From an uncultured bacterium (lineage in GTDB: Bacteria > Zixibacteria > MSB-5A5 > JAABVY01 > JAHJOQ01), in contig CBDUQR010000012.1 of NCBI GenBank assembly GCA_965369655.1, positions 1-64,000 of the forward strand: DNA of 64,000 nt, written 5' to 3'. Of this stretch, positions 24,001-30,000 are shown in pieces (positions within the stretch are counted from its first letter, which is position 1; the number at the start of each line of letters is the position of its first letter). The position numbers were made by a program.

Positions 24001-27000
24001 ACTGCGGAACGTCTCACAACACCTGATCGGATGTCGAACGAGGTCGATCTCGATGTTACTCTGCGTCCGAAGACATTCGACGAATTTGTCGGGCAGCCGA
24101 AGCTCAAAGAAAACCTGAAGGTATTTGTCCAGGCCGCGAAAGAACGTGGTGAGGCGCTGGATCATTGCCTTTTCTGCGGGCCGCCCGGTCTTGGCAAGAC
24201 AACGCTCGCGTATATTATGGGCGAGGCTCTCGGTGTGCGAGTCAGGTCGACTTCCGGGCCTGTGCTCGAAAAAGCCGCCGATCTCGCTGGACTCCTGACG
24301 AATCTCAAGGAACGGGAGATTCTTTTCATCGATGAAATACATCGTCTCAGTCGGGTCGTCGAGGAGTATCTCTATCCTGCGATGGAGGACTTTACGCTCG
24401 ATATCATGATCGACAGGGGTCCGGCCGCCAGATCGGTGAAACTGCCGCTGAAGCAATTTACTCTGATCGGCGCGACAACCCGCGCCGGACTCCTGACGTC
24501 GCCGTTGCGGGACCGCTTCGGAGTAGTCGGCAGGTTGAATTACTACGTGCCGGAGGATCTGCAGAAGATAGTGATTCGCTCGTCGACTATTCTCGGAATC
24601 GATGTCCAGCCCGATGGCGCGCATGAACTCGCGCGGCGATCGCGCGGTACTCCGAGAGTCGCGAATCGTCTTCTCAGGAGGGTGAGAGATTTCGCCCAGG
24701 TCGCGGGCGAGGTTGTCATCACGAGTCAGAATGCGAGAGATGCGCTGATACGCCTTGATGTCGACGATCTCGGACTCGATGAAATGGACAAGAGGATTCT
24801 CGAAGCGATAATCTGTAAGTTTCACGGCGGGCCGGTCGGTATCTCGACGATCGCCGTAGCCGTTGGAGAGGAGCCGGGTACGATTGAAGAGGTCTACGAG
24901 CCATTCCTGATTCAGGAGGGACTGCTCGAAAGGACTCCTCGCGGCAGAGTCGCCACACCGTTGGCATTCCGGCACCTCGGTCTTGCGATCAAATCCGATA
25001 CGGACCAGGGCAAACTGTTCTGACCGACGATGAAAATCCTGATTCATATATGCTGCGGGCCGTGTTCTGTCTATCCATTCGACAAGCTCGCCGAAGAAGG
25101 GCACCAGCTTACGGGGTACTGGTACAACCCGAACATACATCCATACAAAGAATACAGGGAGCGGCTCGGCAGCCTGAAGGAATTCGAGAGGATCAAAGGT
25201 TTCGAGATCGTATACGATGACAGGTACGAACTCGAAAAGTATCTCGAAGCTGTGATGCCGGACCTCGAAAACCGTTGCATGCACTGCTATGAATTGAGAC
25301 TCGCCGAAACCGCGAAGCACGCTTCCGAGAACGACTACGATGCTTTCACGAGTACACTTCTCGTTTCGCCATACCAGAAGCAGGCATGGATTCGCGAGGT
25401 CGGCGCTGCCATGGAACGGGAATTCGGTGTGACATTCCTCGATATAGATTTCACTCCCGGTTTCAGGGATGGAAAGCAGAAAGCTTACGACATGGGGCTG
25501 TACATGCAGAAATACTGCGGGTGTATATTCTCCGAGAAAGAGAGATACGAGAAACGAAAATGAGAGTATCGGCGTTCGATTATGATCTCCCTGAGCACTT
25601 GATAGCGCAGTATCCGCCTGAGAAACGCTCCGATTCGAGACTGCTCGCTTTCGATCGCGACTCCGGCAGGATAGAGCATCTGCATTTCCAGGACATCCTG
25701 AAATTCCTCAAGTCGGGTGATGTCTTAGTTGTCAACGATACGAAGGTATTCAAGGCGAGGCTTCGAGGAAAGAAAGAAGGGACATCAGGGCAGGTTGAAT
25801 TCCTCTGCCTTAAGCCTGTCAGAGATACGATCTGGCGAGTGCTGTGCCGTCCGGCGAAACGGATCAGACGCGGAGCAACTATACTATTTGATGATGGTGC
25901 GAGTGCGCGTGTAATCGAGGAAGTCGACGGCGGCGAGAGGATCGTGGAATTCTCGGACGATCCGCTGAACATCTGCGATCGTATCGGAGAATTGCCGCTT
26001 CCGCCTTATATCAAACGAACCGCTGACGTGTCCGACCTTACGAGATATCAGACTGTTTACAGCGATCCGGTCGGCTCTGTGGCGGCTCCGACAGCCGGGC
26101 TTCATTTCACCGATCAGATGCTCGACGAAATCCGCGAATCGGGTATCGAGTTGATCCATATCACGTTGCATGTCGGCTGGGGAACATTCAAACCGGTCGC
26201 AGTCGACGAGATCGAGGATCATTCGGTTGAACGGGAGTGGTACACGGTGAGCAGTGAAGCCGCCGAAAGGATCACGCGTTTACGGAGTGGGAATAACAAT
26301 CTTGTTGCAGTCGGAACCACGACTACGAGGGCTCTCGAAAGCTGGTACAGAGATACGTTGGGTGAACTGACGGCATACTCCGGCGAGACTGATCTGTTTA
26401 TTCATCCGCCTTATCGGTTCAATCTGGTTGACAAGCTGGTCACGAATTTCCATCTTCCGAGGTCGAGCCTTCTGATGCTTGTATCGGCATTCGCGGGACA
26501 CGAGGATATCTTGCGGTGCTACCACGAGGCCGTTGAGCGTGAGTATCGCTTCTTCAGCTATGGCGACGCCATGATGCTATTATGAAAACAACCGCTGTCA
26601 TACTTGCCGCCGGCAAGAGCGAGAGACTACCGGGTGCTGTGCCGAAACAGTTCCGTCCTGTCGCGGGAATGCCGGTGCTGGCACACACGCTACGGCGATT
26701 CGAACGATGCGATGCAGTGTCGGATGTGGTAATCGTGGTCCCCGAGCAGTACCTGCCGTACACCGGCGAATCGATTGTCGAGAGATTCGGGATAGAGAAG
26801 GTGCGCGCTGTCGTAGCTGGTGGCGATTCGCGGTTCGAGTCGGTCATCCGCGGACTCGATGCGCTGCCAAAGGAGACGGAGATTGTTGTGATGCACGACG
26901 CGGTCAGGCCGCTTGTAACGCCCGACCTGATCGACAAGACTGTGCGAACATGTATTGATGAGGGCACCGCAGTCGCAGCCATAGTTGCAGGCGACGCGGT

Positions 27001-30000
27001 CAAGCGTGTGGAGAACGGATATGTGCTTGCGACTCTTGATCGCGAACGGATGTATCTGGTGCAGACGCCGCAGGCATTCAAACGCGGGCTTCTGGTCGAG
27101 AGCTATGCCAATGCTTCGGACCACTACTCCGATGATGCATCGGTGGTAGAGGCTGCGGGGCACAAGGTCAGAATCATCGAGGGTGATCCAATGAATCTGA
27201 AGATCATACGGCCTCGAGACCTTGATCTGGTGAGGTTCTGCTTAAGCAATTTTGATGGAGAGACGAATGGCTGAACTGAGAGTCGGTTACGGCTTCGACG
27301 TGCACAGGATGATCGAAGGCAGGAAACTCGTTCTGGGCGGGGTCGAGATCGAATTCCCGAAGGGACTGGATGGGTATTCCGATGCGGACGTCGTCTGCCA
27401 TGCGATCGTCGATGCACTTCTCGGTGCAGCGAGGCTCGGCGATATAGGCGATAATTTTCCGCCGACCGACCCGAAATACAAAGACATCGCCGGGCTGAGA
27501 CTCCTCGAACTCGTCAGGATCAAACTCGCCAACAGTGGTTACGAAGTAGAGAATATCGACGTCACGGTCATCTGCGAAGAACCGAAACTGAATGAAATCA
27601 AAGAAGTCATGGCGTCGGTGATAGCGCAGACTCTCAGAGTTGGCGCCGAGCAGGTTTCAATAAAAGCGACGACTTCCGATGGTCTCGGATGTACGGGCGA
27701 AGGGAAAGGCATTGCCGCGGCTGCTGTGACTCTTATCTCTGAGGTCCTTGTCGAAGAGGATGAAGAGGATGTCGATGAAGGGTACGAAGATGAATGAATT
27801 CATCTCTCCCGGGCAAATCGATGAAGTGATTGATCTGGTGACAAGACATGGCACTGGATGGATTCTCGCCTTCGTGTTCTTCTCGATGTTTGTAGAGAAT
27901 ATCTTTCCGCCCTATCCGGGTGATGCCGTGATATTCGCCGCCGGTTTCATAAGTGGATCGGGGAAGATGAGCGTGGCGCCGCTTCTGGTTTTGTCGATAA
28001 TAGGGAGCGTTGCATCGATCATGGTTGTTTACGCCGTAGGGCGCAGATACGGCAGGGCGATATTCGAGAGGCGACTTCTCAAGTCCCTCGGACCGGACAA
28101 TCTGCCGAGGATCGAATCCTGGTTTAGCAGGCACGGCGCCCGATTGATTCTGGCGTCGCGGTTCCTCGCGGGCACCCGCGCGTTGATCGCGCTCTCCGCA
28201 GGCGTCGGCAGGATCAGCGCACCCCGAATGGCTTTCTTTTCCACTCTGTCGGTCATCGTCTGGAACTGTCTGGTCATTCTTTCGGCGTACCATCTTCACA
28301 GCAACTGGGAAGTAGTCTACGAAATCTTCTCGACATATAACCGAGCCGTATTCGTTGTCGTAATAGCTGTAGTCGCATTTTTCGTCATCAGGGGGTTTGT
28401 CAGGAGGCGGCGCGGCTGATGAATGTACTCGTGCTTATGGGCGGGGTGTCGCCCGAACGCGATGTCTCACTCGATTCCGGCGCTGCGGTGTGTCAGGCAT
28501 TGGAGACTGCCGGACACAACGTGATCGGACTCGATACAGGAGCCGATGCGAAACTGCCGGAGATCGGAACGAACGTACTCTCACCTGCCGTCAAACCGGA
28601 TCCTCCCGACATGCGCGAGTTGACCCGGCTGGACAGGCAGTTCGCGCTCAAGAGCATTACGGCTGAATCCCTGCGCGATGTCGATGTCGTCTTTATTGCA
28701 CTTCACGGCGGAGCGGGTGAGAACGGCGAGATACAGGCGTTGCTGGAGCTTGCAGGTGTCGCATACACAGGATCACAGGTGCTCGCTTCGGCACTCGCGA
28801 TGGACAAGGATATGAGCAAGAAGGTATTCCGGAGTGAGCGGATTCCGACGCCAAAATGGGTTATGGTCGGCAAGACAGTAGATGGAGATTACTCTGAATA
28901 TGTCGCCGTGATCGCTGAGAATCTCGGCTATCCGGTGATCGTGAAACCGAGCGATGCCGGATCGACCGTCGGCCTGAGTCTCGTGAAAAGCGAAACCGAT
29001 CTGATTCCCGCACTACAGCATGCTGCGGAATTCAGCGGGAGAATCATGGCTGAAGAGTATATTTCGGGCCGTGAGTTGACCGTTGGGGTGCTTGATGGCA
29101 AGGCTCTGCCGGTCGTCGAGATAATCCCGTCGCATGAGCTTTACGACTACGAGTGCAAGTATCTGCCGGGTAAGTCTGAGTATGTCGTGCCCGCTGAGAT
29201 CGACGACGACCTCAGACGAGAGCTTCAGGCATACAGCGAGCAGGCATTTGATGCGCTCGATTGTGCGGGATATGCTCGCGTCGATTTTCGTGTCGATCCG
29301 GAGAGCAGACCGTACTGCCTCGAGGTCAACACACTCCCCGGAATGACGACGACCAGCCTTGTGCCGAAGGCGGCGAGGGCGGCAGGGATGTCCTTTGAGA
29401 AACTCGTCGAGAGAATCTGCGAGGAAGCGGTCGAAAGAAGAATAGCGAGATGAGCATACTGGACGGCAAACGGGCCGTACTGTTTGACCTGGGCGGTACC
29501 CTGATCGAATTCGAGGGAAAGAAACCGTGGAGCGGGCTCGAACTGGACGGCATGAAGAAATGCCATGCGTACCTGACTCAACTCGGTTTCGATCTTCCGA
29601 ATGCCGATGACTTCGCGGCGCGGTTCGCGCAGCACCATAACGAGATATGGAGAGACATCGCGCAGCATCACCGGGAGGTGATGTACGATCGCAGGCTGAA
29701 TGGGTTCCTCTCGCGGTTTGCGGTCGATTTGGGCGATCACATCGAGAGGCTCATGCAGGAATTCTATACTGTCGTCTCGGTACAGCTCGTACCGATCGAC
29801 GGAAGCGTTGAAGCATTGACCACCGTGGCGAAGAGAGGCTTCAAGATCGGCCTGGTTTCAAACTCGCCATTTCCAGCAGAGTGGCACCGCAGCGAGATGA
29901 AAAAGTTTGGGTTATACGATTACTTCGATTACTCGGTATTCTCGTCGGAATTCGGCATGCGCAAACCTGACCCATCGATATTCAAGGATTGCCTCGACAA

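Follow-up and report, generated by a model that had tools for sequence, protein, structure and literature searches.

Retention of ispD and ispF after loss of the MEP pathway in an order of Zixibacteria, and a possible noncatalytic role of their products

In an order of Zixibacteria, and independently in genome G013, ispD and ispF were retained after loss of the MEP pathway. Within the order the pair is under purifying selection, and catalytic residues have disappeared from the sequences of family f2, of G013, and of G010's IspF. The pair of the genome studied here keeps its core catalytic residues and appears to display only early erosion (IspD T140A, T189S, and T215I). With a probability of roughly 55%, we favor the reading that IspD and IspF carry a noncatalytic, oligomer-dependent second role. 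New in this analysis are an order-specific acidic tail of IspF and a near-invariant dimer arm of IspD in the catalytically dead clade.

Gene order and loss of the MEP pathway

In the window, i.e., the whole stretch of 64,000 nucleotides that was analyzed, ispD and ispF are flanked by queA on one side and by a DedA/VTT gene and then ddl on the other (Table 1). All four junctions of these five genes overlap, by 4, 8, 8, and 1 nt. A look-up of RNA runs covering positions 25500 to 29500 gave no entry. Coordinates and family scores confirmed the initial annotation of a full-length ispD-ispF pair between queA and a VTT gene. Its statement that both proteins pass their family cut-offs held for TIGR00453 and TIGR00151, but IspD stayed below the stricter profile NF001186 (208 vs 253), and also below NF001183, the profile of the TarI ribitol-5-phosphate cytidylyltransferase (128.7 vs 166). 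The DedA/VTT gene has its top NCBIfam match, far under the cut-off, in UptA, an undecaprenyl-phosphate transporter. The structure model of IspF had a pLDDT of 86 and the IspF fold (TM 0.86 to PDB 5B8F), and a complex prediction with three IspF and two IspD chains of this genome, made from 59-row alignments, scored 0.00, which counts neither way.

Table 1. Features of the ispD-ispF locus in the window
Feature	Position	Strand	Remarks
queA	25560..26585	+	TIGR00113, 404 bits vs cut-off 267; upstream in the same operon; stop overlaps ispD start
ispD, 230 aa	26582..27274	+	TIGR00453, 207 bits vs cut-off 181.3
IspD beta-arm (presumed dimer arm), residues 138-157	26993..27052	+	hardly varies within f2, a catalytically dead clade
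ispF, 176 aa	27267..27797	+	TIGR00151, 185 vs cut-off 116.45
Tyr codon (TAT) where IspF would have His34	27375..27377	+	no marker of decay
IspF acidic C-terminal tail	27741..27794	+	predicted disordered; last two residues overlap dedA start
DedA/VTT-family membrane protein gene	27790..28419	+	top NCBIfam match UptA, far under cut-off
ddl, D-Ala-D-Ala ligase	28419..29453	+	TIGR01205, 327 vs cut-off 246

The synteny described earlier for 12 of 12 loci has no lineage-specific meaning: since the order queA-ispD-ispF-dedA-ddl also occurs in the other Zixibacteria orders, it must be an ancestral trait. Gene order, being phylum-wide, was thus discarded as a sign of special retention. In two other lineages ispD and ispF have been cleanly deleted: in G038 and G156, dedA comes immediately after queA.

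IspF is present in 12/12 genomes of the order and HMG-CoA reductase in 11. Dxr was found in two, and IspE, IspG, and IspH scored above cut-off only in the same two, G007 and G008; apart from that of IspH, these counts match those reported before. Dxs exceeded its cut-off in a single genome, G008, which has the full MEP pathway; G007 combines mevalonate with an MEP pathway lacking dxs. The five MEP genes are jointly absent in 10 of the 12 genomes. The genome studied here, which is 99.5% complete and was placed in Zixibacteria by its named homologues, carries a mevalonate operon, and profile searches gave no match to Dxs or Dxr, so no source of MEP was found. Neither ispG nor ispH was found in it, and its IspD and IspF thus have no Dxs or Dxr making their precursor, no IspE upstream, and no IspG or IspH downstream. 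Its dxr, dxs, and ispE genes are gone from between intact flanking genes within contigs, and therefore no assembly gap is involved. The gaps remaining at these sites measure about 140, 130, and 385 nt, the last being overstated because the match begins within the downstream gene. The mevalonate operon and these in-place losses bear out the view that mevalonate stands in place of MEP.

Active-site residues in this genome and its relatives

IspD of this genome retains Arg20, Lys27, Gly82, Asp106, Arg109, Arg157, and Lys213 (E. coli numbering), and its CTP site is intact. PMC11770629 lists G18, R20, K27, G82, D106, R109, and K213 as strictly conserved; six of these seven are present here, and the set is broken in f2 and G013. 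Position 18 is Ser in this genome, as in 16/48 Zixibacteria of other orders. The three substitutions T140A, T189S, and T215I fall at otherwise near-invariant positions, of which we take T140 and T189 to have roles at the methylerythritol site. T215 pairs with R20 (PMC5099578). This IspD departs at 3 of 11 near-invariant sites, whereas 144 of 148 further IspD representatives depart at fewer than three. In the alignment, Ala replaces both T140 and T189 in the IspD of T. maritima, although Dxr, IspG, and IspH are present in that organism.

In IspF, Asp8, His10, His42, Ser35, Asp56, Gly58, and Thr133 are kept, and the changes are H34Y, S73G, E135D, F139C, R142E, and E144K. Asp at position 135 is held to be sufficient (PMC2151065). 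The zinc ligands D8, H10, and H42 are thus found together with S35, T133, and an acidic residue 135, a combination missing from all six f2 genomes, G010, and G013. The R142-E144 aperture, which binds prenyl diphosphate within the trimer cavity (PMC2151065), is replaced by E142 and K144, as it is in the MEP-bearing genomes G007 and G008.

Both genomes of the genus carry the change from GHSD to GYSD that the initial annotation noted. In E. coli IspF, the backbone amide of His34 binds the 2-phosphate and its side chain holds a loop (PMC2151065). Tyr or Phe occupies position 34 in 4/50 Zixibacteria of other orders, and two of these with H34Y/F, G169 and G071, have Dxr and IspG and lack HMG-CoA reductase. 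Because such relatives carry it, H34Y is no sign of decay in this genome, as had been proposed, and was rejected as a marker.

The reported loss of the DxH motif of IspF and the AAG motif of IspD in all six f2 genomes was confirmed by alignment. DxH is broken in 6/6: none of them retains His10, three still have Asp8, and four still have His42; the AAG..R..K loop of IspD is lost in 6/6. G010 has lost IspF Asp8, Ser35, and Gly58 as well as IspD Gly82. G000, G011, and G009 have kept the residues of both the CTP site and the Zn site. At 33 columns that are invariant in other Zixibacteria (leave-one-out median of 0 departures across 48 reference genomes), IspD departed at 13 to 15 in f2, 12 in G013, 3 here, and 0 in G007 and G008; for IspF the numbers were 11 to 16, 8, 3, and 1 to 2, respectively. 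The reference set comprised the 30 best-scoring IspF loci and further loci added to them, and it leans toward conservation because those 30 were the best matches. Rows of G073, G182, and G202 (partial or N-containing) were dropped before counting, only G073 in the case of IspF position counts, and alignments A3 and A4 were also made without G188, G128, and N-containing rows. Sites evolving fast in f2 and slowly in ordinary homologues included R20, K27, G82, and T215 of IspD and D8, H10, S35, H42, and T133 of IspF. Constraint was lost at 9/228 sites of IspD and 10/158 of IspF, compared to 0 to 4 in the flanking genes of f2, and the fold residues of both proteins were kept.

The ispD-ispF genes of G013 nest within family f4 (tree support 1.0), which excludes transfer between this order and G013. 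T140P, T154S, and K213R of IspD are common to G013 and f2. If a pseudo-enzyme is a fold under purifying selection without its catalytic residues, f2 would qualify by sequence and the pair of this genome does not. G013 shows the residue loss and offers a single genome for judging selection; among 14 genomes of its family, none was a second of its genus. The idea of a decay into pseudo-enzymes therefore holds, at this level, for f2, G013, and G010's IspF, but not for the pair in which it was first proposed, where the core catalytic residues are kept. Separately, an IspD-like family without R20 and K27 was seen in a lineage labeled Verrucomicrobiota; it may be a further instance of the wider role considered below.

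Selection, the IspD arm, and the IspF tail

Codon-model omega values in the MEP-less clades were 0.074 to 0.109 for IspD and 0.072 to 0.084 for IspF, similar to the values for the genes that flank them in those clades (0.063 to 0.099), in agreement with the purifying selection claimed at the outset. NG86 dN/dS for IspF was 0.115/1.68 between G000 and G011, most f1 pairs being near synonymous saturation; the unsaturated pair G003-G004 gave 0.034/0.33 for IspD and 0.030/0.43 for IspF. The IspF ratios given in the initial annotation lie close to these. Sites gaining constraint in f2 numbered 9/228 in IspD and 0/158 in IspF, vs 14/246 in queA and 9/208 in dedA, so the apparent gain is no excess over matched controls.

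Residues 138 to 157 of IspD, which from IspD structures we take to be the beta-arm or dimer arm, are, among windows that normally vary, the one conserved best across 17 f2 sequences (identity 0.93 vs 0.55). Such conservation was matched by 3/500 shuffles in f2 and by 288 to 339 of 500 in three control groups, in a test that ignores the relatedness of sequences. Within f2, pN was 0.099 in the arm and 0.225 in the remainder. In f1 the best-conserved variable window was the P-loop (2/500 shuffles; pN 0.076 vs 0.308). For IspF, no significant conserved cluster was detected (247 and 89 of 500 shuffles).

The acidic tail of IspF is limited to this order. As it is present in the MEP-bearing genomes G007 and G008 and missing from G013, it was ruled out as a product of MEP loss. 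It is also unlikely to be a mere purine-rich ribosome-binding region: its codons have G at position 1 in 134/180 and A at position 2 in 123/180, and position 3 is mixed. Its last two residues can be ascribed to the overlap of the ispF end with the dedA start.

A proposed second role and its alternatives

We suggest that a laterally spread mevalonate operon made the MEP pathway dispensable, upon which dxs, dxr, ispE, ispG, and ispH would have been lost and ispD-ispF would have stayed for a second job. This job would need folded oligomers (IspD dimer, IspF trimer) and no catalysis, as in a scaffold or adaptor, and it probably amounts to a protein-protein role; the partners would most plausibly be each other or a product of the envelope operon (DedA or Ddl). 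Gene order is what points to envelope synthesis. How far the active sites have eroded would then depend on the time since MEP loss, along a putative series from G008 (full MEP) via G007 (both pathways, without dxs) and this genome (ispD-ispF only, with the first changes in IspD lying toward the methylerythritol end of its active site) to f2 and G013 (no catalytic residues). The second, probably noncatalytic role put forward earlier is supported by the retention under purifying selection, the active-site loss in f2, the near-invariant IspD arm, the independent case of G013, and the clean deletions elsewhere; these, and the excision of dxr, dxs, and ispE here, indicate that deletion was possible. 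Since two MEP-less lineages did lose the pair, the job must be dispensable or replaceable. Against a noncatalytic role stand the core residues kept here, the lack of excess constraint gain, the lack of an IspF cluster, the tail's absence in G013 yet presence in G007 and G008, and the two Ala residues of T. maritima IspD. A further point against it is that, according to PMC5821942, IspD, IspE, and IspF of B. subtilis do not form a complex.

Slow, functionless decay, with the pair serving as translated spacers in a tightly overlapping operon leading into dedA and ddl, and with constraint reflecting only selection against misfolding, seems to us rather unlikely. The four overlapping junctions, the largely fold-related residues kept in f2, the counts of newly constrained sites, and an erosion that varies by lineage, as under relaxed selection, all fit it. 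It is at odds, however, with omega values equal to those of working neighbors and with precise deletions, two of them in this operon (G038 and G156) and three in other operons of the genome studied here. The arm, near-invariant across sequences 46 to 85% identical to the first, and a length of exactly 235 aa in 15/16 f2-type IspD matches (near-full-length called proteins only) also speak against it. It is barely credible that the MEP genes went unassembled or were replaced by unrecognized enzymes, with the pair working normally: every genome is a many-contig assembly and the search for PF21135, an alternative reductoisomerase domain (0/5 genomes), had no positive control, but the in-place deletions largely refute this, as do completeness, the mevalonate operon, and the joint absence of five genes.

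IspF can cyclize CDP-ME without IspE, and an enzyme for another substrate or a nucleotide sensor, confined to this family, might thus be envisaged, IspD making a CDP-polyol and IspF cyclizing it or binding CMP/CDP; only f2 and G013 would then be noncatalytic. The intact CTP and Zn sites of G000, G011, and G009, the conserved P-loop window of f1, and the change of T140 and T189 in 11/11 MEP-less genomes, both being kept in G007 and G008, agree with this. We nevertheless regard it as distinctly unlikely: the T189 replacements vary from one genome to the next (S, P, G, S), as would be expected of loss rather than retuning; G010 of the same family has lost the residues listed above; IspD is under the ribitol-5-phosphate cytidylyltransferase cut-off; and f2 and G013 are left unexplained. 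A noncatalytic second role thus remains our preferred reading. A wider version of it, which we consider unlikely, is an ancient, moonlighting IspD/IspF assembly in envelope lipid-carrier handling, masked in MEP bacteria by the essential enzyme role and repeatedly exposed in Zixibacteria upon the switch to mevalonate.

Compared with IspD (EC 2.7.7.60; TIGR00453, PF01128) and IspF (EC 4.6.1.12; TIGR00151, PF02542) of the MEP pathway, the pair is orthologous, at the ancestral locus, and of the same fold; it differs in having no substrate supply, IspE, or downstream enzymes, in the acidic IspF tail, and in the disappearance of catalytic residues from f2 and G013. Pseudo-enzymes with a nucleotidyltransferase fold, such as GlgD, GalF, GMPPA, and eIF2B gamma/epsilon, keep that fold as a regulatory or structural subunit, each partnering an active paralogue; here there is no active paralogue, and IspD persists alongside IspF, whose fold is unrelated. 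TarI/CDP-ribitol synthases (NF001183) are IspD homologues active outside MEP, but this IspD is an orthologue beside ispF, and the ribitol enzyme in PDB 4JIS retains both threonines lost here. MEP remnants beside mevalonate, with nonisoprenoid roles proposed, are described in other reports: an active remnant making MEcDP in Listeria (PMC13001223), IspD, IspE, and IspF only in Carnobacterium inhibens, and IspE and IspF only in Vagococcus coleopterorum (both PMC10663253 Table S1, compared over a few dozen mevalonate rows of 4,400, so that species with IspD and IspF only may occur in it). Unlike the Listeria remnant as described there, IspD and IspF stand alone here, unable to make MEcDP, with active sites eroding under purifying selection.

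The hosts are uncultured, and the phylum provides a natural series, from full MEP through both pathways, early erosion, and dead pairs to deletion, for mapping the role by sequence. Where an assembled genome is annotated with a "partial MEP pathway", the basis can be dead proteins that are still named enzymes in databases. An ancient role, if true, would mean the first IspF pseudo-enzymes and might explain the frequent adjacency or fusion of ispD and ispF despite their nonconsecutive steps. If the second role is real, IspD and IspF, which are textbook enzymes as well as targets for antibacterial drugs, would hold a function that outlasts catalysis.

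The ispD-ispF locus and its pathway context

The genes at 26582-27797, orthologous to ispD and ispF, lack the expected pathway context, and the gene order around them is ruvB ... queA-ispD-ispF-dedA-ddl-HAD-peptidase-cysS. Adjacent genes overlap by 4, 8, 8 and 1 nt at the queA-ispD-ispF-dedA-ddl junctions. Profile scans covered the six genes from queA to the HAD gene, and the remaining locus names were read from translations. Close homologues of the locus proteins are labelled candidate division Zixibacteria. The ORF between ruvB and queA resembles a QueH-type epoxyqueuosine reductase.

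Features of the locus and of related loci (L, fetched loci; other positions refer to contig CBDUQR010000012.1)
Feature	Position	Length	Observation
Cysteine-rich ORF	25030-25563	177 aa	No NCBIfam match
ispD	26582-27274	230 aa	Above TIGR00453 cut-off, below NF001186
ispF	27267-27797	176 aa	Above TIGR00151 cut-off
IspF R142E + E144K	27690-27698		Charge swap of aperture salt bridge
HMG-CoA reductase, this genome (contig C41)	L013:406-2793	~770-800 aa	C-terminal part kinase-like
ispD-ispF fusion, G188 (family f7)	L170:2227-3459		Single open frame
Separate IspD-like gene	L186:1667-2338
Separate IspD-like gene	L187:2983-3651

In this genome (99.5% complete), profile searches placed none of Dxr, IspE, IspG, IspH and Dxs above its own cut-off, and dxr, dxs and ispE were missing within contigs, with their flanking genes present. 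Contig C41 carries a mevalonate operon whose HMG-CoA reductase is fused to a kinase-like part; a type-2 IPP isomerase gene and two more kinase-fold genes complete it. Family scoring covered the reductase, and the other names were read from translations. Among the 12 genomes of the order, IspF was found in 12 and the reductase in 11; Dxr, IspE, IspG and IspH were each found in 2. The MEP-bearing genome G008 (79% complete) has the full MEP gene set, and no reductase was found in it; G007 has both reductase and MEP genes, but its dxs is deleted in place. The Dxr sequences of these two genomes group together in the tree and their genes occupy the usual site before rseP, which fits vertical inheritance.

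Retention and loss across the phylum

In the phylum sample, IspF was present in 189/201 genomes and Dxr in 180/201. Three groups outside this order lack Dxr, IspE, IspG and IspH (G013; G038 and G175; G075, G123, G156 and G178), with the reductase detected in 6 of the 7 genomes. G013 (100% complete) retains ispD-ispF, and its pair is nested within its own family f4 with a support of 1.0 (FastTree, midpoint root). Both genes are absent from the other six, which gave only partial IspD-family matches (E 1e-11 or weaker); dedA directly follows queA in G038 and G156. Since the reductase tree, read without a formal monophyly test, joins f2 (six genomes of this order) to both loser lineages (support 0.98), apart from f1, the family of this genome, the MEP losses in f1, f2 and G013 were probably independent of each other, so that there would be about three retentions versus two deletions of ispD-ispF. 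The long reductase form is scattered over Zixibacteria families, occurs alongside Dxr in G072, and has a tree that departs from the species tree.

Active-site erosion

Residues were numbered from the E. coli K-12 genes, and their roles were drawn from PMC2151065, PMC11770629 and PMC5099578. All six f2 genomes have lost A14-G16, R20, K27, T140 and T215 of IspD (K213 in 5/6) and H10, H34, D56, G58, T133 and E135 of IspF. G013 has lost R20, K27, T140, R157, T165 and K213 of IspD; its IspF carries D8E, H34R, S35A and G58S and has no TTE motif. D8, S35 and G58 are lost from IspF of the f1 genome G010. In this genome both enzymes retain their core residues.

The initial annotation had taken IspF H34Y as a sign of decay. 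This change proved uninformative: of 50 other-order genomes, 46 carry His at position 34, 3 carry Tyr and 1 carries Phe, and two of the exceptions, G169 (Tyr) and G071 (Phe), encode Dxr and IspG without a reductase. IspD T140A, T189S and T215I are better markers of early erosion in this genome. Position 140 holds Thr/Ser in 48/48 other-order genomes, as it does in G007 and G008; in 11/11 MEP-less genomes it is Ala/Pro, and T189 is also changed in 11/11. IspD of T. maritima has Ala at both positions, which speaks against over-reading these changes. The IspF salt-bridge swap occurs in 4/6 f1 genomes, including both MEP-bearing ones.

A separate IspD-like family (L186-L188, L190-L194) lacks R20 and K27, carries T140A/P and T165S and has lost T189; ispF is absent from these fetched loci. 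One member is labelled Verrucomicrobia bacterium, and in L187 the gene follows apparent accC, asp23/gls24, amaP and PfkB kinase genes (names read from sequence). Because the Atlas clusters closest to the f2 protein (Chloroflexota, Planctomycetota) seldom or never show the N-terminal NTP-transferase profile, a wider spread of eroded IspDs may be taken as a lead.

Constraint and the proposed role of the retained pair

Codon-model omega in MEP-less clades of this order was 0.07-0.11 for ispD and ispF, resembling flanking genes and falling inside the range of MEP-bearing clades (0.03-0.15). dN/dS was 0.034/0.33 (IspD) and 0.030/0.43 (IspF) for the unsaturated pair G003-G004, and 0.203/1.27 and 0.115/1.68 for this genome versus its congener. 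At 33 IspD columns invariant in 48 reference genomes, departures numbered 0 in both G007 and G008, 3-5 in MEP-less f1, 12 in G013 and 13-15 in f2; flanking genes had no comparable grade. That the pattern is an artefact is very improbable.

Best supported, at roughly 55%, is a non-catalytic role in which folded IspD and IspF oligomers would act as scaffold or adaptor. Slow decay without function, the genes being held by operon coupling and folding, is a less probable reading. That the f1 proteins still work as an enzyme, or sense nucleotides, is rather unlikely. Constraint was released at the f2 catalytic sites. Newly constrained sites in f2 did not exceed matched controls in number, but they cluster in the IspD arm, residues 138-157 (3/500 shuffles versus 288-339/500 in controls; pN 0.099 versus 0.225 elsewhere); IspF gave only a hint of a conserved cluster, in helix 74-88.

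For the scaffold or adaptor role, gene order would make envelope genes of the same operon the first candidate partners. Relative to the protein mean, IspD helix 51-70 scored 0.00 to -0.07 in families f1, f2, f3 and f4 and -0.22 to -0.24 in homologues from outside Zixibacteria; its lower variability in the four families hints weakly at a surface predating MEP loss. The last 18 IspF residues contain 8-13 Asp/Glu in all 23 sequences of this order, versus maxima of 5 among 50 other-order sequences and 6 among 109 further homologues; this tail is predicted to be disordered.

Partial MEP pathways beside mevalonate are already known, as PMC13001223 describes for Listeria, Enterococcus and Streptococcus, and PMC10663253 for Carnobacterium inhibens, which of the MEP enzymes has IspD, IspE and IspF only. 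IspD/E/F complexes are described as controversial in PMC5821942. No precedent was found in the passages of PMC13506255 covered, and the literature search found neither IspD/IspF pseudo-enzymes nor this pattern in Zixibacteria, with the proviso that other rows of the PMC10663253 table or further papers may hold one. The lineage-wide pattern belongs with two known phenomena, orphan MEP remnants and pseudo-enzymes, as a new form.
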